Both the position numbers and the translations under genes were made by a program. From Yuukianura sp. NJ FZ-2021 (Eukaryota), in NCBI GenBank assembly GCA_046563655.1, contig CM102286.1, positions 3,658,001-3,722,000 on the forward strand: a stretch of DNA of 64,000 bases, written 5' to 3'. Below are positions 22,931-57,057 of this stretch, one piece after another; positions within the stretch are counted from its first letter, which is position 1; the number at the start of each line of letters is the position of its first letter. Below the pieces are notes generated by a model. That model saw only the letters and a list, made by a program, of their open reading frames with translations. It was not told the origin of the DNA and did not search any database.

Positions 22931-23373
22931 AAATTCAGATTTGTGCTCACGTCAACGCGGATTCAATCGCGGATTTTTAGTGTTAACAGCTTAGATCGTA
23001 ACTATGCGGTCAGGTAATTTGAAATCAACAAACTATCGGTTGCAATGCAGTCCCGGACTTACAGGTGCTCATTAGTTAGATAATAGATTTCCAAAACATT
23101 ACGACTTCCAAGCCCCAATCCCTGTCTTAATTACGGGAATTAAGAAATTGAATTTTTGGTGCCATGATAGCAAACTTACTTTCTGTCAACAAAGTGTAAA
23201 CAATTTCCATTATGGTCTTTGGGCCCAAAAAATTACCTTATAAAATTATAATTATAATTATATAATATTATTATTATAATATTACCTTATACCTTATACC
23301 TTTTTTTTTTTATAACCGGTTATAACCGAAACCGTCCTTTGGCAAATGAAGAAAATTTCTGGAAAGATACGTC

Positions 23374-24102
23374 ATGGGGTCAACAAGTCACAAAGAAGGT
23401 GACCAAGTAAAGCTTAGGTTCTACCAGATTCTTGGGGCTGGAAGTCTCTTTGGCATCGTATTTGTGATCTTAATTCTAACTTGGGTACTCAGTTATGGTG
23501 GAGGGTTCGACTGGAACAGAGGAAACAGCAGCGTCAACATTCACATGGTCATAATGACATTCTTCATGGTCTACTTACATGGACATGCGTCCCTGATGTA
23601 CCGAATTCTACTGAACCTGCCAAAACGTACTGCGAAACTGATACATGCTGGAATCCATCTTACAAATTGCGTTGGATGTGCAATTGGACTTTCCGCTGCA
23701 ATTCGGTCACACTATCTTAAAAAAGCTGCTCACTTCTACTCTCTACATTCCTGGATTGGAATTTCTGCAATACTGCTGTACTACTTACAATTTCTGAGCG
23801 GATTCGCTGCATTTCTGTTACCAGCAACTCCAACTAACATCCGAAAATACTTTCTTCCCTTTCACCAAGTTCTGGGTCAAAGTCTCTTTACGTTATGTAC
23901 TGCTGCTACAGTGAGTGGAATAATGCTGAAAGCAATTGGAAGTCTTGGGACTCTGTATCCAACACTGCCGCCTTCAGGAATGCTGCTCAATTTTGCTGGA
24001 CTGTGTGTCATCTGCTACTTACTTGCATTCGGGAATCTTCTGACTAACATTCAATTCCGCCGTCCGCGTCCGGTGGAAACAGTGCATGAAGTTCAAACTT
24101 AA
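23374..24102 (+). CDS. Cytochrome b561 family transmembrane ascorbate-dependent/ferric reductase, single exon, 242 aa
   Basis: About six hydrophobic helices and four heme-ligand-type histidines (NIHMVIM, KLIHAGIH, the HFYSLHSWIG family motif, LPFHQVLG). Confidence 0.92.
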   Translation: MGSTSHKEGDQVKLRFYQILGAGSLFGIVFVILILTWVLSYGGGFDWNRGNSSVNIHMVIMTFFMVYLHGHASLMYRILLNLPKRTAKLIHAGIHLTNCVGCAIGLSAAIRSHYLKKAAHFYSLHSWIGISAILLYYLQFLSGFAAFLLPATPTNIRKYFLPFHQVLGQSLFTLCTAATVSGIMLKAIGSLGTLYPTLPPSGMLLNFAGLCVICYLLAFGNLLTNIQFRRPRPVETVHEVQT

Positions 24103-24434: not shown

Positions 24435-24613
24435 AGTTGTTCGAGTGCTTCACTGCAATTGGGCGAGCTTCTTTCGGACGTACATAACAACATAATTAAT
24501 ACTTTTTGCACAAGAGGTTAGAATCCGAGCAGTAACTATTTACGGCTTTACTGTCTAGTATGTGTGTGTGTTAATAATTGTTTTGTAATCTCAGGTCAAT
24601 TTCCTTGAAGGTC

Positions 24614-27011
24614 ATGTCTCTAAATATGGTGTTAGCGATAGCGAGGAGAGTGAGAACAGTTCGCGGATTTTCGAGGACCCACGTTGCAAATTTCAGAACA
24701 TCAGCAGTTGTGCTGGCCCATGGGTCGAGTCCTGTTTCGCCGGTTCAAGTGTACGGTTTATTTTATTCAAATTATGAAAACAATTTAATTATTGTTAGCA
24801 TTTCCATGTCTTTGTCACTTTTTTGGTGTTTTAGAAATCCAGGGGACGTGGACGGAGCAACGATTTTGGCCCAATCTTTGAGAGATCAGGTGACGGGAAT
24901 CTTAAAGAAACTTTCATTATCTTATTTTTAGTCATACTTTGACCAGTAGATTGGTCATTCGGTTTCTGTTTTTAGGGTGTTGAGTATGCCTTCGGAGTAG
25001 TCGGAATTCCCGTCATAGAAACGTCGTTTGCTCTGCAGCGGGTTGGAATTAAATACATCGGAATGCGGAATGAACAGTCAGCGTGCTACGCAGCACAAGC
25101 TTACGGATACCTCACTCGGAAACCAACTGTTTGTCTTACCGTATCTGGCCCTGGGTAACTCAATTTGTACCTCCGATTTTTCTTACAGTAACTTTGAGCG
25201 ATTAATGAGGAGTATTGTGATGCTCATGATTTTGCTTCCGTAGAATGCTCCATGCGCTTGGGGGATTAGCCAATGCACAATCCAATAGCTGGTAAGTTGA
25301 TAGGTATCATCAAATGTTCCGTACTCCATTTCGTTGAACATAAGAACTGAATTTGTTTCAGGCCTTTGATACTAATCAGTGGCTCCTGTGACAGACCATT
25401 GGAACAGCTAGGGGCCTTCCAAGAATCCAACCAAGTTGAAGCCGCTAGGAATTTTACAAAGTTCTCCGCCCGGCCGCCAACACTTGACACTATCTCTCCA
25501 TATGTAGCCAAAGCAGTAAGGATGTCTCTGTACGGTCGTCCTGGTGCAAGCTACCTAGACTTCCCCGGGGACTTGCTGGGTCAAACGACTGCAAGAGAGA
25601 AAGCACATTTTTCACCCGCTGTGCCACCACCCCCAGTAGCACTGGCTTCAGAATCCGAAATCCAACGTGCCTTAAGCTTGCTGCAAGAAGCTGAGCGACC
25701 ACTGGTAGTCATTGGCAAAGGCGCGGCTTATGGCCGTGCTGAAAAACATATCCAGGACTTCATTGCCTCTACTGGACTTCCATTTTTACCAACTGCCATG
25801 GGGAAGGGCGTAATTCCAGATGACCACTCCAACTGTGTATCTCCTGCTCGATCACTTGCTCTTCAGAAAGCCGACGTTGTACTATTACTAGGCGCTCGAC
25901 TGAACTGGATGCTTCACTTCGGTCAACCGCCTCGGTTTAGTCCAAATGTAAAAGTCATTCAGGTAATTGACGCAAATGTACAATAATAAGCTCCTGGCTA
26001 GACTGAACATGTTTACTAAACCGATTTTCTGAAAACATTTTTGGTGAAATTCCGATTCTAGGTGGATATTGAACCAGAGGAGTTCCACAGCAGCATTCCA
26101 ACGAACGTGTGTCTACTGGGTGATGTTAACGCAATCGCGGGACAGTTGGCGAAGAGCGCTGCTCAATCTCGTTGGTCATTTGCAAAGGACAAGGCTTGGT
26201 GGAGTGAGATTAATTCCAAAATTGAATCTAATCGGAAAACTGTCAGCGTGAGTTCTACACTATTTCTGCTTTTAACGTTGATTTTGGTATTACTTTGCGA
26301 GAATCCCTGTATTTTTTTTCTAACTCTAGGCAATGGCAAACGATTCGAGTGTTCCGTTGAATTACTACGCCGCTTTGTCTTGTATTCACAACAACATTCG
26401 ACATGACTCCATCATTGTAAATGAAGGTGCTAATACAATGGACATTGGCAGAACTGTTCTACTGAATCGTCAACCAAGATGTCGACTGGATGCTGGAACA
26501 TTCGGAACAATGGGAGTTGGTCTTGGATTTGCCACTGCAGCGTCCCTGTTTTGTCAAGATGAAGGTATCGGAAGGAGTGTCGTCTGCGTTCAAGGGGATT
26601 CGGCTTTTGGTTTTGGCGGTATGGAACTTGAAACTCTGTTTCGGTACAAACTTCCTGTTACTGTTGTGATAATCAATAACAATGGAATTTACGGTGGCAT
26701 GGATGGCACTGCTTGGGAGGCCGTTCGATCCGAAAAACAACATCTTGCAATTACGTGCGTTTTAACAAACAAAATTTTATGCTAAAAATCGGAGATCTTT
26801 TGTAAATTAACATTTCTGCATTTTCATTTTCTTCGTTTGCAGGACGCCGACTACATTTCTGACACCACAGACAAGGTATGAAAAGATGGCGGAAGTTTGT
26901 GGGGGGCGTGGCTTTTATTGCGAAAATTTGGAACAACTTCGTGAAGCCCTAATTGAAGCGGGAAAGGTGATTGACATTAAATACTACCATACTTTTTTTT
27001 TGAAAAGTTAA
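24614..27011 (+). pseudogene. HACL1: 2-hydroxyacyl-CoA lyase 1, copy 1; 3'-truncated duplicate lacking the last exon
   Basis: Multi-exon TPP enzyme ([61 protein letters not shown]...NNNG). Identity to copy 2 ends inside the last intron at GAAAAGTTAA (27011); reading through that intron gives TAA at 27009-27011. Confidence 0.85.
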
Positions 27012-27266
27012 CGAGAAGATTAGCATGAGCTCATTTAGCCTTGAGTGGTCTTATACAGTATTTTGGCACTTGAGACGGACGGAGTATTCTTAAACTAAAG
27101 CTTAAATCTAAAAAAATAGTAGCAACTGCACTTATGGGTTGAATTGATTGATTGAATTCATTTCTGCTAAACTAGCTTTCTCTGTATGACAAATTAGTGT
27201 TTACTTGTAGAAACTAAGGAGATTGTATCGATGAAATAAGGTTCGGCAGATGCGTGTGTTTATTCC

Positions 27267-28046
27267 CAGTGATGTACTGTCTTCCGGAAGATTCTTCCAT
27301 GGAAGACGTCTTCCGGCTTCATTCTTCCGACTTCCGGAAGATTTGAAGACGGAAGACTGGAAGACGAAAAATTCTCTGGAAGACGGAAGCCGGAAGATTG
27401 GAAGACGAAAAATTCTCTGGAAGACGGAAGCCGGAAGACTGGAAGACGAAAAATTCTCTGGAAGACGGAAGCCGGAAGATTGGAAGACGAAAAATTCTCT
27501 GGAAGACGGAAGCCGGAAGACCGGAAGACGAAAAGTTCTGTGGAAGACGGAAGATGGAAGACCGGAAGACAAAATATCCTCTGGAAGACGGAAGATGGAA
27601 GACCGGAAGACAAAATATTCTCTGGAAGACGGAAGAGTGGAAGACAAAACAGCCTATGGAAGTCGGAAGACTATAGGACAAAACACCCTCTGGAAGACCG
27701 GCAGACGAAAAATTCTCTGGAAGACGGAAGCCGGAAGACCGGAAGACAAAAAATTCTCTGGAAGACGGAAGCCGGAAGACCGGAAGACAAAATATTCTCT
27801 GGAAGACGGAAGCCGGAAGACCGGAAGACAAAATATTCTCTGGAAGACGGAAGCCGGAAGACCGGAAGACAAAACATCGCCTGGAAGACGGAAGATGGAA
27901 GACAAAATATCCTCTGGAAGACGGAAGATGGAAGACCGGAAGACAAAATATTCTCTGGAAGACGGAAGACGGAAGACTGGAAGACAAATCAGCTGTTTCT
28001 CTTCGGAAGACGTGAAGACTGGAAGACGGAAGACAGTACAAGACTG
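27267..28046. mobile_element. hAT-type non-autonomous element (MITE) with an internal ~41-bp GGAAGAC-rich minisatellite
   Basis: TIRs CAGTGATGTACTGTCTTCC / GGAAGACAGTACAAGACTG (2 mismatches in 19 bp). Perfect 8-bp TSD TTTATTCC at 27259-27266 and 28047-28054. Confidence 0.9.
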
Positions 28047-28127
28047 TTTATTCCAGAAAAAAATCATTCCAGAGGAACGGTGGTATGCAATGTTGTGCAG
28101 TAGTAATGGCTGAATCGTGGTACTTCA

Positions 28128-31100
28128 TCAATACTTCCAGATACTCCTCCTTCTCAAACTACAAATTACATTTGTATTTAAATGTTCTTCTTTTTCAAAT
28201 TTTGAAATGTTAGTACTAACTTTTGAAAGTGATTCAACACTCACCTCATTAACAACCCTATGATCGACAACGAGTTTTTGAAGGCGTCGGAGTTGCCCAG
28301 TTTGGCTGGCATAAATAACGCCCTTCCAGCACTCAATGCTGCAGTTGAGGAACTTCAAATGTGTCAGCACTAGTTAAAAAACAGAAACATTTGTTAATAC
28401 ACGCACTGCGACTTTAAAATTATTAATTTATCCATCAAAAATTAAAATTGTGTTTTAAAATATTATGCTTACCCGGAAAATTGCGAAAGGAGTCAACTGA
28501 TTCCGAAGTTTTGCCAGTTTCTAGGAGAGAATTGGTAATCATACTGTGTGAGATGTATTGAGCTCCATTAGTTAGGTGGTTCCAGTGTTTAAGTTGAAGG
28601 TCACGGTCCCAATCAGGTCCAGGAGTGTCGGACTCGGTATAAATGTGCAGTTTCTGGACTTTCGGAAACTGGAAAATCCCTTCTAATGTTTCAGAAACAA
28701 CGCACAATTCAGTAACGTTGGGGAGTACTAATGGCCAATGTTGACGTTCCTGCTCCGTTTTCAAATAGATTTTTGCGAATTTGACATTTGGAAAAATGCA
28801 TCCAGCGAAGATGAATTTATCGGTTGTTCCAGAATAAATGCAGTCGAGCGTCGTGAGAGCTGGGAATTCCACCGGTTGGCGCAAGATGATAGATTCGTGT
28901 GTCAAATATAACTCCAAACATGCAATGTTTGCGAGGGAACGGATAGGAAGTGTAATTGGACCAAAATCATCGGTGCTCTGACATTCCAAAAAAAGTTTGC
29001 GCAGCGATGTCAGCTTTTGAATCCAATTTGAAATAATTTCCATTGTTTGTGATGCACTTCCAGAAGTGGGATCCCGGAACTTTAAGAATAATTCCAAATC
29101 CAGGATTTTGTGTTTTGTTGAAATTGCAACAAAGTTTTCCAGCTCATCCATATTCAAAGCCGGAGACAGAAGACCCATGGCCAACTTTTGAATGAGGACG
29201 GGTCCGTTGATTCTGTAGATCTTGTCTAGGATGTTTAGAACAAAAGCATGGTATCGGTATGGTGAGTCGGACTCGTACATATTACCATCGATTGAAACGT
29301 TCCTCAGATTTGGAGCTTTCTGCAAAAGCTTCAGCAGAAGGGAATCGTCGTATTGGTCCTCAGAATCGTAGAAGACGATGTTGATGGTTTTCAGATGTTT
29401 TAGTACAGGGATTTCCATAGCTTTGGACATTTCCTGTTCCACAATTATTGGGTACTCGATTTCTTCTACATTTTCGAATCTGTCAAATAGGATTTCGATG
29501 TTCTTTAAAACTGGACTGTCGTGCGGCACTCGAGTACGGAAGAAAATCCGAATTCCCCAGGATTTCACAATACTTCCAAATTGGACACAAAACTCCTCCA
29601 ATGGATGCCCGTACGTCGATAGATATCTACTAAATCTAAACTTTTGGAACGGAACGGCCGTTTTCTTTCGTTCAAACACAGAAATAAACTTCACAATGTC
29701 CGAGTCATTCCAAAAGTTCACCTCAAACAACTTTGGTAAGCATGTCGTTGAAAGTTGATTGAACCGGTGGTTCACCAGGCGTAACTTTGGTATTTCTTGT
29801 TTTTCCAAACAACCGATTATTTGAAGCAGAATCTGAAAGAAGAGATTGTTGTTAGTAATCACATAGATTATTTATGTCAAATCAGAGTTCAAGATTCGAT
29901 TTTTTTTTATCTCCAAATCTTGTTTAGGATTTATTTGTAAACTCATCTTACATGTTGAGGCTTTGTTGGAAATTTTTATTTCGCTAGGAATACGTTATTA
30001 TGAATCTTAAAATATTATTGTTATTCAACGGAATGCAGCTCCAAAAAAAAACAGTGGCTTGAAACAAACGTTCAATTATTGGCTTTTGGCTTCAAGCTCG
30101 AAAGTTTAGTTTCGAAATTAACAAATTAGAAATCAAGTTGGCCTTACTTCATTTGGAATGGAATCCACCGTGGCAGTGCAAGACAAACGAGCGGCATCAC
30201 GAAGTGGTTCAACAAATGAACGCGATGTAGCAGACTGATTCTGTACTTCATTGTGATTACTTAACGTTCCTGGAGTAGATGGAAAACGAACCCCACTTCT
30301 TAAAGCAGAAAAACTGATCTCCACAGAGCGCACAGCTTCTTCCAGTTCTAATAAAAAAAAAAGTAATTCAGTCCGCAAAAAATCATACGGAAAATCTGGT
30401 TTTGTTGCTCACTCTTCATATGTGTTTCGTAGTTCCACGGTTTGACGACATCTAGGATGACGTTTGACTTGGCAATGGACTCAGGCTCTTTGCTCTTATT
30501 CTCTGCGCAGGCTTTGAGACGATCTTCTCGAATGTTGGCTGCCACGGCATCCTGCGAACCATTAATCACTAGGGGTCAACCATTTCCTCGCAGAAAATTG
30601 CAGTGGCACTCTCGCACTTGATCAGCTGTTGGTAAAGTGCGAGCGATCGCAGATTTTTTGAGTTCGCCTGTACCCGCCTGTACCCAACAGCCAATCAGGA
30701 GAAGTGCAATTTTCTTTTTCCAACTCAAAAATCTGCGACCCTCAGAGGCTTCTATAAATATCTCTTTCGCACTCTCGCACTCTCGCAGATTTCCAACTGC
30801 CAACTCAAACTGCGATGAAGTGCAAAGAAATGGTAGACCCCTACTATTACAGTCTCAATTCTCCAGCCAATCCTTTTACAAAAAGTATTACCTCTTCTTC
30901 ATCAGATGCAAAAAGATCAACATCTTCATCCTCATCACCAGCACCGTATTTGACAGGAGCAGCTGAAAAAGTAGCAGCACATGCTCCGGATGCCCTGAAA
31001 CTGGCTTTCAATGCTCCGAAGCTCTTGATGTGATTGTACCATCGGAGGACATGAGGATGTGAAGAATCCGGAGTGGATTTGATGCCATCAAACGTTTTGG

Positions 31101-31277
31101 TATCAGCACTGCTCGGAGAATACCTGTTCAGAATCAGCCAGTTGTTAATCGGTTGGAATTCAAGTGCAAAAATTAGCAAATTCTTAATCTAAATTACCCT
31201 TCGACATAGGAGTGGGACTTGAGATGTTCATTGAGTTTAGCCAATCCAGCAGCTGTTGAGACGTCAGCAAACGCCAT
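28128..31277 (-). CDS. Predicted chimeric EF1-beta / F-box (LRR-like) protein, 6 exons, 750 aa
   Basis: Exons 31277-31198, 31123-30892, 30551-30413, 30347-30148, 29832-28473 and 28369-28128 all have GT-AG junctions and matching phases, 2253 nt with no stop. The N-terminal part is EF1-beta (SYVEGYSPSSAD, HVLRWYNHI, DVDLFASDEEE, AKSNVILDVVKPW). The exon 4/5 join forms an F-box (SIPNE|ILLQIIGCL...LRLVNHRF). Confidence 0.7.
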
Positions 31278-31390
31278 GTTCCAGAGGAAATGAAATTAAA
31301 TAAGGCTAGGCTAGATTAATCGGTTTACAATCAATTAATCGACATTCGGTCTTGTACTCGCGTCGCGGGGCGGGAGGGAGGTTAGATGAG

Positions 31391-32134
31391 GGGTCTGACT
31401 ATTCCTCGGAATCCTCGGAATTTTTTTTGAATTCCTCGGAATTTCTTCCCTATGACTTCCCCAGCATTTCCCCGGCTGGGCAACTCGAAATGTTGACTTC
31501 AGGTTGACCTGCGTACATTTTCAAAATTCCAAAGGCCTACGAATTCTTATTTTTCATTTCCCCACACTTCCCCAGCATTTCCCCGGCTGGGGAAGTGACA
31601 GGGAAGAAATTCCGAGGAATTCGAAAAACTCGAAATGTTGACTTCGGGTTGACCTGCGTACATTTTCAAAATTCCAAAGGCCTACGAATTCTTATTTTTC
31701 CTTTCCCCACACTTCCCTAGCACCTTCCCGGCTGGGGAAGTAACGGGGAAGAAATTCCGAGGAATTCGAAAAACTCGAAATGTTGACCTCGGGGTGACCT
31801 GCGCACTTTTTCAAAATTCCAAAGGCCTACGAATTCTTATTTTTCATTTCCCCACACTTCCCCAGCATTTCCCCAGCTGGGGAAGTGATAGGGAAGAAAT
31901 TCCGAGGAATTCGAAAAACTCGAAATGTTGACCCGAGGATTCCTGAGGAATTTTTCAAAATTCCAAAGGCCTACGAATTCTTATTTTTCATTTCCCCACA
32001 CTTCCCCAGCATTTCCCCAGCTGGGGAAGTGATAGGGAAGAAATTCCGAGGAATTCGAAAAAAGAATTCCGAGGATTCCGAGGAATTCAAAAAAATTCCG
32101 AGGATTATGAGGATTCCGAGGAATAGTCAGACCC
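31391..32134. mobile_element. MITE-like TIR element with about four internal 145-bp tandem units
   Basis: Perfect 26-bp TIR GGGTCTGACTATTCCTCGGAATCCTC / GAGGATTCCGAGGAATAGTCAGACCC. Motif AACTCGAAATGTTGAC recurs at 31482, 31627, 31772 and 31917. No TSD seen. Confidence 0.85.
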
Positions 32135-32219
32135 ACTATTTACGGATGTACTGTCTAGGCTGTCTGTGTGTGTTAATTAGTAATTGTTTTGTTATCTTAG
32201 GTCAATTTCCTTGAAGGTC

Positions 32220-34774
32220 ATGTGCATGTCTTTTAACAAGGTTTTAGCGATAGCGAGGAAAGCAAGTACAATTCGCGGATTTTCGAGGAACCACGTCGCA
32301 AATTTCAGAACATCAGCTTCAGCAGTTGTGCTGGCCCATGGGTCGAGTCCTGTTTCGCCGGTTCAAGTGTACGGTTTTTATTTTATTCAAATTATGAAAA
32401 CAATTTAATTATTGTTAGCATTTCCATGTTTTTGTCACTTTTTTGGTGTTTTAGAAATCCAGGGGACGTGGACGGAGCAACGATTTTGGCCCAGTCTTTG
32501 AGAGATCAGGTGACTGGAATCTTGAATAAAGAAACTTTCAGAATCTTATTGTTAGTTATGCTTTAACCAGTAGATTGGTAATTCGGTTCATATTTTATCA
32601 GGGCGTTGAGTATGCATTCGGAGTAGTCGGAATTCCCGTCATAGAAACTTCGTTTGCTCTGCAGAGGGTTGGGATTAAGTACATTGGAATGCGGAATGAA
32701 CAGTCAGCATGCTACGCAGCACAAGCTTACGGATACCTCACTCGGAAACCCACTGTCTGTCTTACCGTTTCTGGCCCTGGGTAACTCAATTTGCACCTCC
32801 GATTTTTCTTGTAGTAACCTTGAGCGATTAATGATGAGTATTGTGATGCTCATGATTTTGATTTTCCTTCCGTAGAATACTCCATGCGCTTGGGGGATTA
32901 GCCAATGCACAATCCAATAGCTGGTAAGTTGGTATGTGCCGCCACATGTTCAGTACTCCATTTCGTTGAACATAACAAAGAGCTGGATCTGTTTCAGGCC
33001 TTTGATAGTAATCAGTGGCTCCTGTGACAGACCATTGGAGCAACTCGGGGCCTTCCAAGAATCCAACCAAGTTGAAGCCGCTAGGAACTTTACAAAGTTC
33101 TCCGCCCGGCCGCCAACGCTCGACACTATCTCTCCATATGTAGCCAAAGCAGTAAGGATGTCTCTGTACGGTCGTCCTGGTGCAAGCTACCTCGATTTTC
33201 CCGGGGACTTGCTGGGCCAAACGACTCCAAAAGAGAAAGCACATTTTTCACCCGCTGTGCCACCACCGCCAGTAGCACTGGCTCCAGAATCCGAAATCGA
33301 ACGTGCCTTAAACTTGCTGCAAGAAGCTGAGCGACCACTGGTAGTCATTGGCAAAGGGGCGGCTTATGGCCGTGCTGAGAAACATATCCAGGACTTCATT
33401 ACCTCTACTGGACTTCCATTTTTACCAACTGCCATGGGGAAGGGCGTAATTCCAGATGACCACTCCAACTGTGTATCTCCTGCTCGATCACTTGCTCTTC
33501 AGAAAGCCGACGTTGTACTATTACTAGGCGCTCGACTGAACTGGATGCTTCACTTCGGTCAACCGCCTCGGTTTAGTCCAAATGTAAAAGTCATTCAGGT
33601 AATTGACGCAAATGTACAATAATAAGCTCCTGGCTAGACTGAACATGTTTACTAAACCGATTTTCTGAAAACATTTTTGGTGAAATCCCGATTCTAGGTG
33701 GATATTGAACCAGAGGAGTTCCACAGCAGCATTCCAACGAATGTGTGTCTACTGGGTGATGTTAACGCAATCGCGGGACAGTTGGCGAAGAGCGCTGCTC
33801 AATCTCGTTGGTCATTTGCAAAGGACAAGGCTTGGTGGAGTGAGATTAATTCCAAAATTGAATCTAATCGGAAAACTGTCAGCGTGAGTTCTACACAATT
33901 TCTGCTTTTAACGTTGATTTTGGTATTACTTTGCGAGATTCCCTGCATTTTTTTTTCTAATTCTAGGCAATGGCAAACGATTCGAGTGTTCCGTTGAATT
34001 ACTACGCCGCTTTAGCATGTATTCATAACAACATTCGACATGACTCCATCATTGTAAATGAAGGTGCTAATACAATGGACATTGGCAGAACTGTTCTACT
34101 GAATCGTCAACCAAGATGTCGACTGGATGCTGGAACATTCGGAACAATGGGAGTTGGTCTTGGATTTGCCACTGCAGCGTCCCTGTTTTGTCAAGATGAA
34201 GGTATCGGAAGGAGTGTCGTCTGCGTTCAAGGGGATTCGGCTTTTGGTTTTGGCGGTATGGAACTTGAAACTCTGTTTCGGTACAAACTTCCTGTTACTG
34301 TTGTGATAATCAATAACAATGGAATTTACGGTGGCATGGATGGCACTGCTTGGGAGGCCGTTCGATCCGAAAAACAACATCTTGCAATTACGTGCGTTTT
34401 AACAAACAAAATTTTATGCTAAAAATCGGAGATCTTTTGTAAATTAACATTTCTGCATTTTCATTTTCTTCGTTTGCAGGACGCCGACTACATTTCTGAC
34501 ACCACAGACAAGGTATGAAAAGATGGCGGAAGTTTGTGGGGGGCGTGGCTTTTATTGCGAAAATTTGGAACAACTTCGTGAAGCCCTAATTGAAGCGAGA
34601 AAGGTGATTGACATTAAATACTACCATACTTTTTTTTTTTGAAAAGTTAATGGATCGATCACGGTGTCTGTTTTATGAATTCAGGAAACCGACAAACCAA
34701 CTGTTTTGAATGTGATGATCAGTCCATCGGCTCAAAGGAAGCAACAAGACTTCTCTTGGCTAACGCGTTCTTAA
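32220..34774 (+). CDS. HACL1: 2-hydroxyacyl-CoA lyase 1, copy 2 (complete)
   Basis: Same exon structure as copy 1 plus the terminal exon 34685-34774 ([29 protein letters not shown]), which matches the HACL1 C-terminus. Confidence 0.92.
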
Positions 34775-37381: not shown

Positions 37382-40300
37382 TCAGCGATTACTATGCATT
37401 TCAAATGATGATGCTCTACTTCTTCTATAAGTAGGGTTCGTAAAGTTCGATGTAGCCTCCTTATACAAAGGATTTACACCCTAAAACAATCAAAATCAGT
37501 AAAAGAATTCAATGTATTTTTTTTAATTTAGAAATGACTTACCGCACTCCACTTTGCTTGTTTGATTTCATTCTTAAATTTTTTCCACTCTTTGAGGTCA
37601 TGGTAGTATGTCACAAATTTCCAAACTATGAGAAGAACCAAACCACCAGCCAAAACTGAACCAACAATTCCAATGACGACCCAAATTATCGGAATTTCTG
37701 CTGGACATCTTGGTTTTCGTTCCACTCGAACTTCAATTTTGTTTCTGTCATGCGCAGCATAGCGGTAAACGTATTTGGTTTCGCATCTGTTATCATCACG
37801 ATATGAACAGGACTTGTCTTCATCTGATTCTTCAACTGTAAATGTCTCCTCAATTTTAGTATTTTTACTGAATTTGATTGTATATTAGTTTCAGACTTAC
37901 AGACTTCCTCCAGGTCCTTGATTTCTGACAAATAGTTGCATTCTTGACAAGGGCGGACATGCCCACTGTGTAATTTTTGGACATAACACCGAATACATCC
38001 GAGGAGACTTGGATCGTCACATTTTCCTGGGCAATTCTGTTGGAACGAATGAAACTAAGTTTTTAAGGCTAAACTAAAGGCGATTTTTGTTTAAATTGTC
38101 GACAATACCGGGCAGTTTTGACAAAGTCTTCCAGTAAAGGGACTCTCGCAGACACATTTACCGCATTTGCAGTATCCTCTGCTACTGCATGTCGATTCCT
38201 CTCCAGGTTCGCGACATTTGTCCTAGTTCAATTAGAAATGTTGATAATTTTTTTTATTGAATCCATAATTTTTTTTTTCGAAATACTTCATCTGTAGAGC
38301 ACTTGCAGGAATCGCCTACAAATCCCGCGCTGCAGACGCACTTTGAACATTTACAAATTCCTTGACCGGAACAGACAAGTCCGTTGTCACCGACTGGACA
38401 ATTGGAGTCGTCACACTCACAGTAAGTCCCCGAGTAAATCTGCAACGAATTCCGAATGACAATGATTTTGAAAATGCAGACTTGGTGTGAAGATTTGAAA
38501 TGTGAAGAATACCTGAACTCCTTGTTGATTTTGGTTACATTGACACTGTCCACAAATACAGCTCCCGCGATTGGAACAAATCGAGGAAGAGTTTCCCATT
38601 TGACATGCGCTGTCATCGATGTCAGTGGAATGACCTCCACCCATCGTTTCTTGTGAACACTGACAGTTTTTCCCAATGTAACCTTCTGCGCATTCGCAGA
38701 CTCCACATCTCGGAGTTCCTCTACCCTCGCACAAGGTGTCGTTTTCTTTGTAGTTCTGAAAATAGGCACATTTGACATTAAAATTTACAGCAATTTTTAA
38801 AAACGACGACGCTTTTAGTCTGGTAAGAAACTTTTATACTTGGTCTACAGCGGATTCACATGGACAGTCGCAGATAAACTCCAAATTTAAAAGTAGCCGC
38901 TCCGCCACCCCCACTGGTGAAATCGTCAGAATTTGGTTCCATTCTTTGCTGTTTTTTGGACACCGGACCAGCTCCACCTCAATTTGAAACCTTTGTAATA
39001 ATTTTTCAAAAATTAAAAAACTACAATTCGAGATTCACAAAAATTTTTGCCAAACTTCATGTCACAATGTCAAAAAAATTTTAGTACGTGGCATTGGCAC
39101 CAATTTTCATGTCGTGACATCTACTACTCTTCAGATAGGGCGAGTCGTTGCTACATTTTGCAAAGTATGTGAGTCTCAAGTACTTTGAAAACTGTGGTGG
39201 CAATTTAGGTAGTTCAACTGAACTGATGATTTTCTGAAATTTCAAATCAAAAGCGTCATGAAAATCCACACTTTACGTAAAATTGCAGTGATACAAAAAA
39301 AATGAAAAAGTTAAGTTACCCGATACTCCTCCTCTACAAGCTCTACGACATTTTCAGAATCATTTTTGAGTGCACGCGTCGCCGAACCTTCAATTCTTCC
39401 TGAAAGCTTTGTGTACAATGGGACATGTTCCTCTGTGACAGCAAATATGACGAATACTTTTTCTGCTTTGACCTTGGCATTGACCTGGGCTATAGACGGA
39501 TAGTCCATTTCGGCCGATTTGGCGTCCAAGGTCCCGTTTTTTGTAATGTGACACAAGCAGTCGTTGGGTTTGAAAATGCCGCCCAGCTGGTGCAATATTC
39601 AAAGGTTAAAATATTTGTAAAATATCTTAAAACTCGATATATCTACGAAGATTACAGAATATGAAATTAGGCTAGACTTTACTTGACTAAAAATTTTTAA
39701 TATTTTTACTTTTGCATCTCCAGCAATATGGAATGGTCCGTCGGTAGAGACGATTAGCAAATGTCTAGCGTTTTTCCGCCATCCAATGGTTTCTTTACAA
39801 ACGACTCCCTGCAGGACAGCATCTAGAACTCCTTCAGGAGCGTCCAGATTTCCAGCAGTTTTCGACTTTTTAACTTCATCCTAAATGGAGCAAAATCGAT
39901 AAATTTATGTTACTCATAATGACAATTTATTAACTAATTTTAATGAATTGGATCGTACTTGGAACCGGTGAATATCGTTTGTAAGTGAAAGGTGATTTTT
40001 AAATCCATACGGAGCTGTCGTCGTGTTTGTGTCTCTTAAAACAAATTTCAAAAATTAGAAGAAAAAATGCCAATTTTTGTATTGTTGCAAATCTTACTCT
40101 TTGCTTAGTTGACTAATTGAAACAAATGGCAAAATTGGTTTTTCAATGAACGATCCAAATCCTATTCGGATGTTGGAAGTCAAGTTGTGGATCCTTTGAG
40201 CCAGTAGTGTACCAAGCGTTGCCACTGTCGACTGTAAACATTTTAGACGTTAATCAATAGGAATTAATTGAAAACTAATTGATGTATACTTTAAAATTAC

Positions 40301-44705: not shown

Positions 44706-47509
44706 TTAAATAAGAAGCACGTCTAGTGATTGATTCTCTGAAATGTTTTCAAAATGTTTCTGTGATACTGGTAACTTTGAATTTTGAATTTTGAGAGGTA
44801 CAATGGCTGCCTTCCAAGTTCCCCTGGAATTAAATTTCTCAGTTTTTGGAATTGTGTCAACTTCCAGATTTGTAGAATTCGTGCTAAGATTTGCCACTTC
44901 TTCCACCTTAACTGTTTGTGTATTGTACTTTCGCAGCATAATTTCCACAAGCATGCAACAGACTGTGATGGCAATACAAACTATGTAGACAAAAAATACA
45001 ATTCCAGTAGTAGTTTTCATACTAAGACGATTGACTAAACTGATGGTTATGTTTCGGCTGTTCATGTGGACTCTTCTAATGGCAGCACACTTTTGTACGG
45101 CGTTCTGGTAGACGTATACGCCAGATTCTGTGAACGCATGCGCAGGTTTTTGGAAAATACTTTTCAGAAAGTTGACAAAATGAATGTTATATCCAAGTAG
45201 ATACGCAGGAACGAGTTTCGAAATCTCTGAATCTTGCAATTTATATATCCCTTTATACGTCTCGGGATCCAACTTTGCGCGCAGAAGTAAAAGGTCAATG
45301 ACCTCCGTTGGCCGAATGTATGCAGTAGAACTGCACTGAAGTACAATATTCATAGATGCGCTTTTGTCAACAATTCCAGATACGCAGCTCGGCGGATGCA
45401 AGAATTTCACGAGTCTGAGCAAATTTGCTTCAGTTTGAGTTGATTCCGATTCAAACGCTTGACATTCCGCGATATTTTGAATGCTATTATTAACTGCGTG
45501 CAAAGTTTTTAAAAACTTAAGCTTCCTGAGCTTGCTGAACATTCCAAGCGCAATAAACGGAAAATCATAACTGTCGTAGCTTGTCGAATGAATCACAACG
45601 TCGTTCCGGCAGTCCGAGGCATTTGACGAACAACATTCCTTAAGTATTTCAAAAGATCTTGGTGTTGGTTCATAGTAAAACGAAAAATTGTTTCCGATTG
45701 CCCCAGCCACGGTAACCTGTCCCACCATGGCGAATGGCTTGATAATATCTGTAGTAACGAATCCTTTGTAAGTATTTGTGAGCACTAGAGCCATGACAAG
45801 AAATGAACCAAACCCAATTTGAAACCAGGCGCGAGACCTAAGTTTGCCTGAAATTCGTAGACAATGCTCCAAAAGGTAAGAAACCAAAAGGAGAATCATA
45901 GAGTCCGATTTGTCGTTTAGCAAAATAATGTCCAGCATTACAGCAAGTGGAAAAACAGTACAAAATAACAAAATCCAAACGGTCGATGTAAAGGGCTCAA
46001 CGTATTTCGGCAAACCTAGTTTTCGTACGAGTCCATCACAAGTTATAGCAGAGTGTGTTTGACTTCGGATCGGTACAAATATTTGTTCAGAATCTGCCAC
46101 ATAGCCTTTGTTCAGTGCGTTGTACTTGATACGTAATATAAACTTCGGTTTTCGTCCGCGAGGTTTTGAGTTCACTTCAACGCGACTGCGATTGAAGGCT
46201 TTCATAAGGAATTCGGCCAGCACAAGACAAATCGTCTCCTCCGTTGAGGATTCAGGAATACTCAAAAATCCAAGCAAATGTACATGCTGTTTGAATTGAC
46301 GTTCAAAGTTTGAGTTTAAAAACTCCTTAGAAAAACCTGAGAGCCAGAAATGATACATAAATGAGAACATGACTTTTTAATTAGCTTAAATTTTTAGCAA
46401 TTTTTTAGCTTAAATTTTGGAAACTTAATTTTTTTTTATTAGCTCCTTTACCTGTTGTTGCGTCAATCTTCAGCTGGATCCGAGGAATGATGCCGGTTTC
46501 AGGATTACTTAATTCATAATAGACCCTATGCGTAACGAGCGTTTGTTCATGTGCGGACTGAGTTGTTGACGTTTGTTTTACCATGTACATTATGATTGGA
46601 ATTACATCAAAGAAGCTGTTCTTCCGTGCGACCGAAACCATCCATGGGCCTGGAGTCCAAAAAAAGAATTCTCAATGACCTGATGAAATTTGCAGCTTGA
46701 CATTGTAAATGCGGTTGAAGTAAACTTGGATCCCCTGCCTGTCCTCACCCGTTCAAACTTTTGCGCAGCTATATTGTACCCACCAATTGTCCCCACCATG
46801 TGGATACAGTTGTTCCCACCACAACCAAAAACAGTACTATAATGGAGGCAGCACAGGGTGGGTACAGTGGAGGCAGCGCAAAAATTTGAACGGGTGGTGA
46901 CAGGCGGGGGATCCAAGTTTACTTCGACCGTATTTGCAATTTGAAAAACATGAAATGTTTAATTTACGTCCAAGCTGACCACTTACTCCATTTGTGAAAA
47001 TCCGTAATGATAGCAGAAATAAAAATTCTAGACGGAAACAGAACCATGCTCAAGGCTTCGACTTCAAGATGAGCATATTTGACACGTTTGTCTTTATACC
47101 TAGTATTGCTCCAACGAGTTCTCAGGAAAAGGTGAGCGTCATTTATGTGGTTCGGTTCAGTGGTACCTAGCAAGTATATGGATACACATCGCAAATGTTT
47201 TTGAAGGAAATTGGTTTGAACCATATCACATACACCTTCTTTTGTCGAGTTTATAGTACCAGTTAATCTTGGATTTGGTTTACAAGATGGCGGAATGTCT
47301 TTGTAAATGTAAGTTGTGTTGGAAACAGCTACTGGGTAAGTGGCAGAAATAAAGTTGAGTACCTGAGGCTGATAGGATATGAGTTGGTTGTAACAACCTT
47401 CGGAGTGACCCAGAAAGAAATCCAGGTTCAAAAAAGCAGAATTGGCGAGTATTGGCAATAACAAGAAAACCAAACCTGCAAACTGAACGCAAGAATATGT
47501 TTGGATCAT
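44706..47509 (-). CDS. Divergent ionotropic receptor (IR)-like chemoreceptor, 3 exons
   Basis: Signal peptide. Exons at about 47509-46987, 46650-46452 and 46372-44706 join in phase. iGluR/IR-like landmarks: PFTSTVW (M1), LLEH, LVLTNTYKGFVTT (M2), FTESGVY, and a C-terminal M3 ending LVEI. Confidence 0.7.
46712..46930. mobile_element. Short palindromic MITE in intron 1 of the IR-like gene
   Basis: Imperfect ~55-bp TIRs CGGT(T/C)GAAGTAAACTTGGATCCCC...TTTTGCGC. TA on the right flank and TG on the left. Confidence 0.75.
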
Positions 47510-48861
47510 GGCTACTGGGATAGTGGTCGCTTTTATTTCATTCTTTTTAGAAATACAGGAACCCAAGTCGCCTTTATCTATAACTCAAAACATATCTTGA
47601 AAACTCGAAAATAGATGTTTCTTCTGAAAACTCAACAAAAAAAGAATTTTAAAACAATTTGAAAGTTCCTTCTGAAAGAAATTCTAGTCACGCAACGTCA
47701 ATTCTTATAGAAGTTGAAAGATATGATTTCAGTTTTAGATAAATGCGGCATGGGTTCCTAAAAATAGTTTTTAAAAACAATCGAACGATCGCAGGAACGA
47801 CCGTTCGTCCAGAACAAACTGTCCACTTGAAATATAAGCCACTCCGTTTAGTTCGACGTTCTCGTATGTAGATTGTTGGTCTAACTTTTTAAACTGTATA
47901 TTTTACCTAGCTTATGTCACCACCTTGTCATAAACAACCCAAAGATTCTAACACCTCTGGGAACCTTGAAAATTTTAATGACCGCTTCACTGTTTGAAAG
48001 GTACTATTATTTTTTAAAAAGTAATTTCAACTCTTCTGTTTCAAACCTTCAAATTATCTACCGCGTACCGTACATTCCATCGAAAATTTTAAATAAAATT
48101 ACTGCTTAAGGACATAGCCGCAATTCCGTGAAAATATTTAAGTGCTGCGAACCACAATTCTTGGGAACCACAATTTTCAGGTAGTAGCATATGTACAAAT
48201 AGTAGTACAAGTACAACGAATTTGTCATGGATTGTACAGCATTTTTGGTTTAAAAACCAGAGATGCATGTTGATGTGCCTAAATAGACTTTTAGTTAGAA
48301 ATACCTCATTGGCTGTAGTTTGCTTCAAAATTGAAAAATCAATTAACCAAAATATTGAGTTGACGAAAGTTCCAAAATTTAGATAGATTCGATGTAGCTA
48401 CAAAAAAAGTTCTAAACACACGCTATTAGACCTTTTATATTTTAATTGGCGTTCTAATTTTTAATTTTAGAGAAAGTCTGCGTTATTTTGTTCAAACAAA
48501 ACTGTTGTGTCAAAAGAGTAGGTGAACATCAAGGCTAAATACAATCTTTTCATCTTCTGTCTGATTTATGGTCCTCTTAATTTCGGTTTTCTTCAAAAAA
48601 CAATACAATCTGGATTCAGAATCAACATCAAATGAATCCCCATTCACTGTAGTTTTTGGTTGTAGTTTCCATTTAATTGAATAAATTTTGGCAATTCGTA
48701 ACAAACACAATATTAATGTAGTACACTTGTCACACTAATACATACATATGCTGCTATACATTTATTCAAGGACTGAAATATTTCTGTTGAGTTTCATCAC
48801 TACTTACATGTTTGTTTTTAATACGAGGTTTCAGTTGTGTTCCAAAGAGTGACCTGACGCC

Positions 48862-51800: not shown

Positions 51801-53762
51801 TTTTAGAAAAGACATATTTTTATTTGATTTGTGTTAATTTGTACTTTTAGAATAGCCAAGGAGAATCTGACGGAATAGAAGCCGAAATTACAATCAAACG
51901 TCCAGTAAGACGAATTCTTAAAAATAAAAATGAATGTTGTCAAATGTGTCATTTCTTAGGTACGTAAAGAATCTCAATGTAGCGTGCCCTTAAAAGCAGC
52001 TCGTATTGACTCTATGCTTGAAGATGTAACGGTAGAAGAGGGTGACGATATATGCTTTTCAGCAGCATACAGTGGTGAACGTACGTGTATAAATCGTTGC
52101 ATTTGTATCATTTTCAAATATGCTGTTAACACTTGTAGCGCCTCCAACACTAACTTGGTATCACGGCAGCGAAGAAATTTTTCCATCGGAGATGACTACA
52201 ATATCAAACGACGGTAGGACTTCGACGCTTACAATTAAAAATGCTAAACCAGAACATCGCGGCACTTACACTCTGATAGCATCCAATTCTTCTGGAGAAG
52301 ATGAACTATCAGCTAGTGTCACTTTTATGAAGAAACCAATGGATCCGACAGATTTGACGGTAAATTTTGCAATAATGTATACAGCTAACGAGGAATATAT
52401 GCAGAATTTTTACGGTAAGATGTTGTAACAATCCGTAGGTTACCGAAACTGAAGGTGCAGATGGGGAATGTACGCTCGAGTGGAAACCGAACAGTCTTGG
52501 TATATTCATAATTTTTAATATCAGTTCGGTATGTAGATCTGTAACAACATCATTAACACCACTTTTTCTTTCCAAAGATGCTCCAACTCACTACCAAATA
52601 TTCAAGTGTCTTGAAGGAACTGAAGATTGGATGCCCATATCTCGAGTTCGGGAACCCAGAGCTGTAGTTAGCGGACTTCTGCCCAGTCAAATGTACAAGT
52701 TTCGCGTGTGTGCAATCAATCCGTACGGATCATCTAAAGGAATAGTAACCGAATACACCCCTGCAACTCGACAGCGAAAGGCTCTTCCTGAAGTCGAATT
52801 GCAAAAACCAAAATTTATACGAGAGTTGAGCTACGATTGCAATTTGTCTACCAAGGAGCTGGTATTGGAATGCGAAGCTACAAGTGACTCTTTGGTTACG
52901 CCACAATGGTTCAGAAATGGGCGGGAAATTAAGTATAATCCTCGATTTCGCTGGGAAGTCTATGGAGGGATTTACCGGCTTTACATATCAAAATTTGAGA
53001 GAATCGATGAAGGAGAATATACATGCCTGTTAACAAATTCTGCGGGAAAAAGCGAGTCTTCAACACGCGTGAGATGTGAAGACTTGAATTATCGACGGCG
53101 CAACTTCCAACAGCCGGATCCTATTCACTTGACTAACATCAACAGTTTCTTCTACGGTACACGTGGTACGTGCATCCAAAATACCGTAAAGGCTCTAGAA
53201 TAGCCGTGAACCGAATTTTGACAATATGTAGGATTATGTACAGGATGTCGTATATTCCACTACAAGTACCATTTGTTTTTTAACTTAGGATACCCGCACA
53301 CAGGGTCCTTGTACAAACCTACGCAGTGGCATCGCGCAAGAAATTTGTTTCAACGGATAGCATGTACAGTGGAGAATGAATTTGAGCCCTACTTTACATT
53401 TTGTCTGCGTCCACGTATTGTCCAGTACCGAGAAGATTCTTGTAAACTGACTTGTTGCATCAGCGGAAATCCCAAACCACATGTATTGTGAATATTTTAT
53501 AATATGTTGCCGTAGTTTGATTCGCCTTTTTATAATCAATTTTTTTGAAACGGTATTTCAGGTGACTTGGTATTTTGAATCACGTGAGCTGGATAAAATG
53601 GAATATAATATAACGTTTGTCGATGGTGTTGCGACTCTGCAAATCGAGGATTGTAAACCACAAGACTCTGGGGAATACCGTTGTGTCGCTAGTAATTCAA
53701 AAGGAAGTTGCGAAGGGAGTTGTGTAGTGGTAATTGAAAATCGCAAGAAAAAATACCGATAG
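48862..53762 (+). CDS. Twitchin/projectin/titin-like Ig-Fn3 muscle protein, short and without a kinase domain
   Basis: K/P/E-rich N-terminus, then about five Ig and four Fn3 domains (VLDKPPTPKGPL, YKFRIKAVNKEGESDPLE, DAGTYTLRAVNDSG, YKFRVCAINPYGSS, DSGEYRCVASNSKG) spread over many short exons. Stop at 53762. Confidence 0.85.
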
Positions 53763-54327: not shown

Positions 54328-56434
54328 ATGGCGACCATTACACTGGCGGAAACCAAAGTAGTCCAGGAGGTAAACTTTCAAATCTTGTTACCGAGTCGGT
54401 AGTTATATTTTGAAAGTTAGTTTGCATAAAACTATGGTTTCAGCTATTTTGATTTATTTTAAAGTTTCGAGCGAAAGTAAAAGACCTAAACTTAGAAAAT
54501 GCGCCGGACACATACATGTTAAGGTGGCTTCGTGGTAAGGATAAGAGTAACGTTCATAGCATTATAGTTGACTACCTAAACTAATATTTTGTTTCTCGTT
54601 TAAGTTCGGGGCATGAATGTTACTGCAGCGGAAGAAATGCTCAGAAAGGTAGACAAACGGCAATACTACAAATATTAAATAATACTTTGTATTATAAATA
54701 TCACCATTAAGAGTATTACATCTAGTTTATTTCTAATGTTTACAGCACGTACAATGGCGAAAGGATGAGGATTTGGAACACATTCTAGATTGGGTACCTC
54801 CTCCAACCTTTAGCGAAGACTACAAATACTATATTTCGGGACCCGACAGTGATGGAAATCCTAGTAAGATTACGCATATCATATTAAATGTTGGTACAGC
54901 ATTATGGTAATTTGGTTTTATGATCCGGTACGCATCACGTTTTGTCCTTGTAGGCCTAGGCCTAGTGGCATATCCCGCTGAAAAAGCTAACGTCATCTTT
55001 CTCGTTTTTTTTTGAAAATTTAGTACTGATTCTCCCCTTTGGAACTTGGGACAATCGGAAAACTTTGAAAAGCAACAGACATGGAATGCGAGCGGCGTAT
55101 CTCAGACACTATGATCAAATATTTTCAAAAGCTTGTGCAAAAAAGGAAGGGTTCTCAACCGAACTTGGACGCGAAATAACGCAATTCACATTTATTGTGG
55201 ACTATGAACATCTTTCCATGGGCCAACTAGCGTCACCTACTTGTTTGTTTTTTGCATTAAAATTTTGATGAAATTTCTACTGGGCGTCTCCTTACAGTGC
55301 TATTCTGTTGTTTTCTAAGGTGTCGGTGCATACATAGAAACGCTCAAACGGTTTGAAGCCCACTACCCAGACTGTTTGTCCCAGTTTTACTTCATAAATG
55401 GTATGTACGCCAAGAAGCTATTCCTATTTTTGGGTGAATATAATGTTTGTAACTCATGTTTTAGCAAACCGAGCTTTCCAAATTTTGTTTGCCGCGCTTA
55501 AACCATTCTTTTCTACTGGGACACTTGGGAAATTAGAAATTTACGGGAGTCCAGATAAATGGATTCCAGTTCTCACGTCACGCTTTCCCGGAGGTCAGCT
55601 TCCTCTGAAATACCGCGAATTGCAAAAAGTGGGTCAAAAACACACTTTAAAACTCATTTCCAAAACTAGCTGAAAATTATGTACCCGTTCTGTGTTTGAA
55701 CAGACTTCTAAAGGAAACTGTGCACCAGAATCCATGGATGAAAATGAAATGGCGTGCCTTCAAGTAGCGGCTGGAGAAACTTGTAAACACGAATTTAGTG
55801 TGAAAAAAGCAAATAGCACGTTGAGGTAAAACTAGATATCCTGATAAAAAAAAGAATTTTCGCAGTTGGTTAAACGTACAACATTTCAACACGTAAAGTG
55901 TTGTGTATGGGAATCACCTCATAGGTTCAAAAGAAGAATTGCTTCTAAAAGCATTCATTCTAAGGTGTTAAAAAACATGTTTTTTAGGAGTAATTTTTAG
56001 AAACTTTTTTATAGAAGCAATTTACTTAAACAATGGCATTGATCACCAATCACGAAATGAATACTAACTTATGAAAAGTAGGGAAATAGCGTCAAAAGTT
56101 GGTTTACAAAATACAGTACCAAGCTTCTGTTTTCTTATTGGTCAGATGGTTGTTTCGAACTGAGGCGAACGACATTGCATTTGCTGTGTTTTTCGGAAAA
56201 GATGAACTTGTTAGGAACAAACGATATGAAGCAAGTCAAATTCCGACCAAGGGATCTCTAGTCTGCCATAATACGGGAGATTGTATGTTTTTTTTAATTT
56301 AACAGTACTCGTTTAAGTTTATTGAAATAGCATTGTTTTCTGTTTTTTTAGATGTACTCCACTTTGATAACAGTTACAGTCGACTGAACGGGAAAACGGT
56401 ATTCTACAATGTGGAGGTCACCGAACCGGAGTGA
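54328..56434 (+). CDS. SEC14-like protein (CRAL-TRIO + GOLD), tandem copy A
   Basis: YMLRWLR, WRKDEDLEHIL, FEAHYPD, and GOLD exons WLFRTEANDIAF and LHFDNSYSRL. Confidence 0.88.
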
Positions 56435-57057
56435 ACTTTCTTTAAATTTTATATCAATCTGTATGATAAAATACAGTAACAAAAATGAAAATTCATCCTT
56501 CAATTATTCATTTAATAAATGCAATTCATTTACACACTAATTTTGTTTTTCCGAAACCGTGAACTGTAACTCGTTTTGGATATTTCTACATATTGAGATC
56601 TAGTATTTAATTGGATTGAGATTTCTTTTTCAAAATGGATCATTCTCTTCCAACAATTTTGTGATAACTGGATGACCTTGTCAAGCTACGAATTTTCTTA
56701 TAATTTGATAGTTACTTAGAAACGACGAGGAAAATGTTGTATATTCGTCTTGGTTAACTGACAGTTTTTGGAACAAAAACTTACTTTTGTGGTTATAATC
56801 TTTATGCTGTTGTTTGACGAGGCTAAAGAGGAGGCTAAAGTTAACAAATGTTTTGTTGGGCAAGACGTGGTTGCAATAATGCTCTGTTGCTTGTTGTAGC
56901 GAGGATTATGTAAAAACTAGTTTACGTTCCTGTTTTACTGGAATGGATGCTCCCTTCTACAATTTTTAACATATACTAAACAATTCACACAGCAGTAAAT
57001 CACCAGCCTAGAAAATAGCACAATATTCCACAATTGCGAAGCTTGGGTTAACCCAAA

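Follow-up and report, generated by a model that had tools for sequence, protein, structure and literature searches.

Can the front end of a gene for a translation factor have become the start of a ubiquitin-ligase adaptor? The question is raised by a locus on the minus strand of a 64,000-nucleotide stretch of DNA from Yuukianura sp. NJ FZ-2021 (GenBank assembly GCA_046563655.1, contig CM102286.1, positions 3,658,001 to 3,722,000). This whole stretch is called the window in the following, and positions are counted from its first letter. The original prediction had described an in-frame fusion of EF1-beta (eEF1B-alpha) with an F-box protein at positions 28128 to 31277. We conclude that the EF1-beta/F-box fusion in the genome is very probably real and not recent, and the sequence is best explained as a chimeric gene, specific to its lineage, in the genome of a springtail-like hexapod. 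Translation of the locus as one protein that combines an EF1-beta N-terminus, an F-box and leucine-rich repeats (LRRs) appears about evenly balanced against all other outcomes.

The EF1-beta-derived part and its breakpoint

By joining the exons according to their coordinates, the predicted six-exon minus-strand reading frame of 750 aa was rebuilt exactly, and all exon ends are present with GT..AG borders (Table 1). In an alternative seven-exon model, an extra intron of 86 nt (28244-28159, GTGAGT..TTGTAG) is removed, which results in a product of 748 aa. The seven-exon form is preferred and the seventh exon is likely, because the locus of a relative of the F-box part (L001, see below) contains an intron at the same place as this intron 6 and a weak collinear match after it (E 0.076). 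Both models are open, because intron 6, when read through (28159-28244), gives ..KFEKEEHL.., a sequence similar to the one with which exon 7 begins (FEKEEYL.., 28137-28158). This likeness may go back to a small local duplication.

The search with exon 2 yielded 35 proteins, the great majority of which are EF-1-beta proteins with a length near 220 aa; those with a named source come mainly from beetles and a louse. The closest EF1-beta protein (P0001) is 72% identical in the N-terminal domain, and exon 1 matches it with 81% identity over 27 aa (tblastn). Exon 2 further matches the N-terminal piece of EF1-beta in PDB entry 5dqs_D (E 3.4e-8). A profile was made from 27 of the 35 proteins; P0002 was excluded for its seemingly mis-predicted C-terminus, as were proteins outside a length range of 190 to 236 aa and two synthetase fusions. 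The spliced product aligns with this profile as a single domain that covers positions 1-164 of 222 (185 bits, E 8e-59). The alignment spans three splice junctions and passes the exon 3/4 splice unbroken. With unspliced DNA, separate matches were obtained for exons 1, 2 and 3 only (E 4.3e-24 for exon 2; E 5.2e-17 for exon 3, at profile positions 107-157). The N-terminal GST-C-like domain is aligned at profile positions 1 to about 65 and is predicted to bind eEF1B-gamma. The central acidic region (PF10587) is likewise covered by the alignment to the profile. Scanning the single EF1-beta exons with Pfam gave no relevant match; the acidic region went undetected because an intron splits it. The introns of the EF1-beta part are those of an EF1-beta gene, and the part is therefore a copy made at the level of DNA rather than a retrocopy.

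The EF1-beta homology had been said to end in the middle of exon 4. The alignment agrees: it stops at residue 161 (...RSVEI), 32 nt into the exon at about 30316. The donor part has thus kept the parental exon-intron structure up to a definite mid-exon breakpoint. The last 58 profile positions, which make up most of the exchange domain, gave only chance-level tblastn matches in the 64 kb with eight of the 35 EF1-beta proteins as queries, and no match in a three-frame profile search of 27000-31400. In P0001, the Pfam domain EF1_GNE comprises residues 135-219, and solved exchange domains cover residues 129-219. About one third of the exchange domain remains in the window, and a complete EF1_GNE (PF00736, 88 positions) is absent from the product. 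The residue that pushes magnesium out of eEF1A is located at the extreme C-terminus of the exchange domain, in the part that is missing here. Because most of this domain is missing, the product should be unable to exchange nucleotide on eEF1A or to serve as the exchange factor of the cell. An intact EF1-beta copy must presumably exist elsewhere in the genome; a second copy of either the EF1-beta or the F-box part was not found elsewhere in the window. A nested arrangement, with the remaining EF1-beta exons downstream of the F-box gene, was ruled out, as the last 59 or so residues are unmatched anywhere in the window. One weak high-scoring segment pair with P0003 had suggested that the EF1-beta sequence goes on in a different frame of exon 4; this candidate was dropped, since the profile search gave it no support.

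The three regions of the EF1-beta part differ in how well they are preserved. If a column with the same residue in 26 or more of the 27 family members is counted as near-invariant, the N-terminal domain has 12 such columns, all of them preserved in the window; the acidic region has preserved 16 of its 19, and the exchange stub 13 of its 21. The predicted degeneration of the guanine nucleotide exchange factor remnant is borne out by K126E, D143N, D144Y, D147H, I158V and D161S, all at positions that are invariant in 27 of 27 proteins, and by one extra V that is inserted. Relative to P0001, 18 of 64 residues are changed in the N-terminal domain, as opposed to 18 of 36 in the stub (one-sided Fisher p 0.025). 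In pairs of genuine EF1-beta proteins it is the stub region that is better conserved, with a median identity of 0.86 versus 0.56 for the N-terminal domain. These counts, small as they are, argue for continued constraint on the N-terminal domain but not on the stub, and hence for translation of the front part at least.

The state of the stub also bears on the quality of the assembly. In a region with abundant repeats nearby, a real EF1-beta gene could have been misjoined to an unrelated F-box gene at about 30316. However, the altered 27/27-invariant residues and the inserted codon indicate that the EF1-beta part evolved as a truncated copy and is not the housekeeping gene. Moreover, the junction lies in unique sequence outside the repeats, and the frame is kept across it. 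The decay of the stub therefore makes a misjoin with the housekeeping gene unlikely and indicates that the truncation is not recent; taking all points together, we regard an assembly error as very improbable.

Table 1. Exons of the chimeric locus and repeat elements within or next to it.
Feature	Position	Strand	Description
Six-exon model	31277-31198, 31123-30892, 30551-30413, 30347-30148, 29832-28473, 28369-28128	-	TGA at 28130-28128
Exon 1	31198..31277	-	EF1-beta start codon (31277-31275) and first 26 codons of the N-terminal domain; donor GTAATT
Exon 2	30892..31123	-	Remaining EF1-beta N-terminal (GST-C-like) domain, variable linker, start of the acidic region (..DVDLFASDEEE)
Exon 3	30413..30551	-	Last part of the acidic region, then strand 1 of the exchange (EF1_GNE) domain; degenerate (DVVKPWNYETHM); in-frame Met 149
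Exon 4, first 32 nt	30316..30347	-	Last EF1-beta-derived residues (..LEEAVRSVEI); homology stops
Exon 4, middle	30169..30315	-	49 open codons, Ser/Thr-rich, without Met
Exon 4, last 7 codons	30148..30168	-	V-D-S-I-P-N-E, putative start of the F-box; GTG at 30168-30166
Exon 5	28473..29832	-	Remaining putative F-box and leucine-rich-repeat body, 453 codons
Exon 6	28245..28369	-	C-terminal conserved block
Exon 7 (seven-exon model)	28048..28158	-	TAA stop at 28050-28048
274-bp element	30570..30843		35-nt imperfect terminal inverted repeats, 77% complementary
744-bp element	31391..32134		31-nt terminal inverted repeats (94% complementary), four internal 145-bp tandem repeats
41-bp tandem array	27345..28035		Begins 13 bp past the stop of the seven-exon model (Tandem Repeats Finder)

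The F-box/LRR part, the linker and the start codon

The end of exon 4 together with exons 5-7 appears to encode a very divergent F-box/LRR protein; about 530 codons are open in exons 5-7. Pfam scans were run per exon, and the F-box scores consequently exclude the first seven motif positions, which sit on exon 4. Exon 5 alone reached 14.4 bits for F-box (PF00646; cut-off 20.5) at profile positions 8-39 of 43, and 13.7 bits for F-box-like (PF12937; cut-off 24.3). LRR_14 matched with E 3.4e-4, below its cut-off, and sub-threshold matches of this kind are confined to exon 5. An F-box completed by splicing had been predicted, and the missing front of the profile does coincide with the seven codons that close exon 4 (..DSIPNE); the F-box call as such is weaker than had been implied, with exon 5 remaining below threshold.

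An exhaustive HMMER search of 1.84 billion representatives found three relatives of the F-box part at E <= 0.001. Two are unnamed metagenome proteins (P0036, E 6.4e-10; P0037, E 9e-8). The third (P0038) is a bona fide F-box and LRR protein, whose F-box scores 23.5 bits against the cut-off of 20.5. EF1-beta sequence occurs in none of the three. In a word-based protein search with exon 5, none of 4421 candidates scored. Exon 6 matches P0037 and its locus L001 with 56% identity over 41 aa (E 6e-14). An AlphaFold2 (AF2) model of exon 5, based on the three-sequence alignment, has a pLDDT (local confidence) of 61.8 and a pTM (global confidence) of 0.63 and displays alternating strands and helices. 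A Foldseek search with this model gave 18 matches at E <= 0.001, with COI1 first (E 1.7e-5) and MAX2, D3, TIR1 and Dia2 high; further matches are repeats of NLR, LRRC8 and TLR proteins. The Foldseek matches listed are LRR-containing proteins, and model and matches together support a predicted LRR solenoid after the F-box. Atlas feature matches to F-box clusters at 0.93-0.94 are leads only. The F-box gene seems to belong to a small, fast-evolving family.

A clue to how the F-box gene may have begun before a fusion with EF1-beta comes from L001, a 3991-bp contig that encodes P0037 and was the only one confirmed of 177 candidate stretches in a metagenome scan; the contig of P0036 was not recovered among these stretches. 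Both intron positions of the F-box part of the window are shared with L001. Its F-box exon begins at the same codon as exon 5 of the window, after a TTTCAG-type acceptor. A mini-exon lies 100 nt upstream of it and reads ATG GAA CAT ATT CCA AAT GAA, followed by the donor GTAAGT. The counterpart in the window is GTG GAT TCC ATT CCA AAT GAA, followed by GTAAGG. L001 accordingly has an ATG seven codons ahead of the first shared intron, and the window has a GTG at the aligned position. No EF1-beta piece was detectable in the 763 bp upstream of the L001 ATG. On the simplest reading, the native start of genes in this F-box family is placed seven codons ahead of the shared intron, and the window lacks this start. 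The 49 linker codons would then probably be former upstream sequence of the F-box gene, from a 5' untranslated region or a first exon; a longer native first coding exon in the lineage of the window is possible. For the linker itself no relative and no Pfam match was found, and its other two frames contain stops.

As predicted, the part of exon 4 that does not stem from EF1-beta lacks a Met in frame; across the whole product, Met occurs at residue 1, next at 149 and 352, and then further on. The dependence of the F-box on the EF1-beta start, which had been deduced from this absence, holds only in part. An upstream Met is needed, given that the ATG of the relative is replaced by GTG, but residue 149 could also provide it. 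With GTG in place of that ATG, an intact F-box would have to start at the EF1-beta ATG (residue 1) or at Met 149, unless a non-AUG start is used. The idea that the F-box gene has a first exon of its own within intron 4, or an exon 5 that reaches further upstream, was rejected: no in-frame ATG is present, and the stop-to-stop frame of exon 5 is only 39 nt longer on that side.

These observations leave room for a single locus that is used in other ways. The EF1-beta part might merely supply promoter, 5' exons and start codon while its domain has no role, translation of the F-box protein might begin at the GTG or Met 149 on a transcript whose start is within the EF1-beta part, or the EF1-beta front might be made as a short product of its own. 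In favour of a start at Met 149 is its in-frame place where exon 3 ends; against it is the C at -3. The GTG has an A at -3 and a G at +4, but out-of-frame ATGs precede it in exon 4. Either of two inverted-repeat elements, one in intron 2 and one 113 bp upstream of the EF1-beta ATG, could carry start sites. The frame of intron 3 upstream of exon 4 runs into a stop, and upon retention of intron 3 the reading frame ends after 24 codons. A stand-alone short product, which would bind eEF1B-gamma by itself, fits the constraint on the N-terminal domain as well, but a mere leader would not be expected to keep all 12 invariant residues. As a group, we consider these other uses unlikely. The complete chimera is probably translated from the EF1-beta ATG.

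The open linker is of limited help in this context. Shuffling leaves the 49 codons open in 7.7% of cases, and of the real 147-nt windows taken from the non-satellite part of the window, 12.9% are open; combined with the one-in-three chance of a frame match, a value of roughly 3-4% results for a random juxtaposition. Stronger than this figure is the combination of an F-box/LRR frame of about 530 codons without a start of its own and a constrained EF1-beta N-terminal domain.

Genomic surroundings and the possibility of a relic

The locus is flanked by two plus-strand copies (24535-27011 and 32135-34650) of a 2.5-kb block with a whole gene for 2-hydroxyacyl-CoA lyase (HACL1, a TPP enzyme); the copies are 94.8% identical and have sharp ends. 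The best named matches of a 211-aa HACL1 open reading frame are from springtails (Allacma fusca, 69%; Orchesella dallaii, 68%; Folsomia candida, 64% identity), which is why the source is regarded as springtail-like. A simple tandem duplication, with the chimera at the junction of the HACL1 copies and intact parents outside, was rejected: there is no second copy beside the blocks, and homology stops at their sharp ends. The 274-bp element makes up most of the 340-nt intron 2. The 744-bp element, whose termini begin like those of the intron 2 element (GGGTC...), is located upstream of the EF1-beta ATG, at a distance of 113 bp, and adjoins the second HACL1 copy. Such a rearrangement-prone region fits the birth of a chimera and equally fits gene debris.

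The first third of the window (1-22934) is a 59-bp AT-rich satellite with 388.7 copies, 99% matches and a GC content of 0.255. Beyond the satellite, the window contains animal genes with short introns. An open reading frame with a cytochrome b561 domain (PF03188, E 1.3e-30) is located between the satellite and the first HACL1 copy (23350-24099, plus strand). Further frames encode EGF-like sequence (38257-38784, minus strand) and immunoglobulin I-set plus fibronectin type III domains (52439-53200, plus strand). Two frames on the minus strand, of 556 codons (44709-46376) and 206 codons (46967-47584), have no Pfam match at E <= 0.01. Several diverged internal DNA repeats that are 66-73% identical occupy 54601-63882 and are perhaps arrays of similar exons.

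The surroundings suggest a further explanation, namely that the long chimeric frame is a coincidence and no protein is made: a truncated EF1-beta pseudogene fragment would by accident precede an F-box gene whose own start codon was lost very recently, or which is dead for another reason. The proneness of the region to rearrangement, the decaying exchange stub, the GTG in place of the ATG of the relative, the modest improbability of the open linker, and the fast evolution of a family with three relatives are all in line with such a relic. What it does not readily explain is why about 160 EF1-beta codons and three introns with sound splice sites have persisted, with every N-terminal invariant residue intact despite the loss of eight of 21 in the stub. 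Furthermore, about 530 F-box/LRR codons are still open; the start codon could thus have been lost only very recently, whereas the truncation seems to be old. A relic is hence a serious but rather unlikely alternative.

Several points nevertheless weigh against a translated chimera. The contrast in constraint depends on small counts and is also compatible with a stand-alone truncated EF1-beta product. The argument from the native ATG involves one relative of 22-28% identity. The chance value for the open linker is weak on its own, as the find was chosen for openness from a very large scan. The F-box is below the Pfam threshold on exon 5 alone, and the F-box exon of L001 has no Pfam match. With satellites, tandem arrays, inverted-repeat elements and a recent duplication nearby, the locus lies where dead gene pieces are common. 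Finally, a second example of EF1-beta combined with an F-box was found neither among the three relatives of the F-box part nor among the 35 EF1-beta matches.

Relation to known systems and the predicted product

The front of the locus resembles eEF1B-alpha/EF-1-beta (PF00736, PF10587; 5dqs_D, 1b64_A, 1f60_B) in the order of its elements, which runs, with introns, from the N-terminal domain through a variable linker and the acidic DLFASDEEE region to about 30 initial residues of the exchange domain; the named best matches are EF-1-beta proteins of beetles and a louse. It differs from them in lacking profile positions 165-222 and in the replacement of invariant acidic residues in the stub. The rear shares a putative F-box-like motif followed by a strand/helix solenoid with the FBXL-type F-box/LRR receptors of SCF ubiquitin ligases (COI1, 3ogl_B; TIR1, 2p1q_B; MAX2/D3; Dia2, 7pmk_L). 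In contrast to these, the window protein is very divergent (identity 8-14%, TM-scores 0.3-0.4, Pfam scores below threshold), carries about 210 additional N-terminal residues from EF1-beta and belongs to a tiny family whose other known members are two metagenome proteins.

EF1-beta sequence is found in fusions with other proteins as well. In two proteins of other organisms (P0034, 798 aa; P0035, annotated as a phenylalanine-tRNA ligase beta subunit isoform, 841 aa), its acidic and exchange domains are joined to aminoacyl-tRNA-synthetase domains. Unlike the locus in the window, both retain the whole EF1_GNE according to precomputed Pfam assignments, and the partner is a synthetase and not an F-box protein. 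Chimeric genes that arose by partial duplication or exon recruitment include jingwei and Sdic of Drosophila and TRIM5-CypA of primates. As in such genes, a partial duplicate would here provide the start and the 5' exons, parental introns are kept, a truncated donor domain decays, and a single lineage is concerned. While this route to new genes is already known, the pairing of EF1-beta with an F-box is new to the protein and literature search results, and the present case is known from sequence. Among the titles and abstract openings that the literature search covered, no paper on an EF1-beta/F-box fusion or on springtail F-box families was found.

Judging from the anatomy of the locus, a partial DNA duplicate of an eEF1B-alpha gene would have been joined to an F-box/LRR gene just upstream of the F-box. 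The duplicate would have extended from DNA closely upstream of the EF1-beta gene through exons 1-3 and the introns that go with them to nucleotide 32 of exon 4; from there the frame runs on over the 49 linker codons into the F-box. The predicted product would begin with an N-terminal domain for binding to eEF1B-gamma (up to residue 65 or so), followed by the acidic region and, as far as residue 161, a dead stub of the exchange domain; its rear would consist of a putatively disordered linker, the F-box (residues 211-255 or so) and the LRR solenoid. Such a protein would most likely be an SCF substrate receptor with an extra N-terminal module, which would either dock on eEF1B-gamma or merely donate start and promoter.

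That the locus encodes a working SCF substrate receptor which is docked on eEF1B-gamma by means of the EF1-beta N-terminal domain is an attractive idea but decidedly improbable. If it were true, a ubiquitin ligase would be placed on the elongation factor complex, where it might act in the turnover of eEF1 subunits or their clients, or have eEF1B-gamma itself as a substrate. A single partial duplication would then have created a newly evolved physical link between elongation and ubiquitination.

If the chimera is not expressed, the locus is an ordinary gene relic within a repeat-rich region. If it is expressed, it would be a clean example of exon recruitment, in which the gene of a translation factor has given a start and a docking domain to a ubiquitin-ligase adaptor, the catalytic domain of the donor has been left behind as a decaying stub, and the recipient's own start codon is gone. 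It would then offer a testable case for the origin of ligase specificities or localisations in a little-studied group of arthropods.

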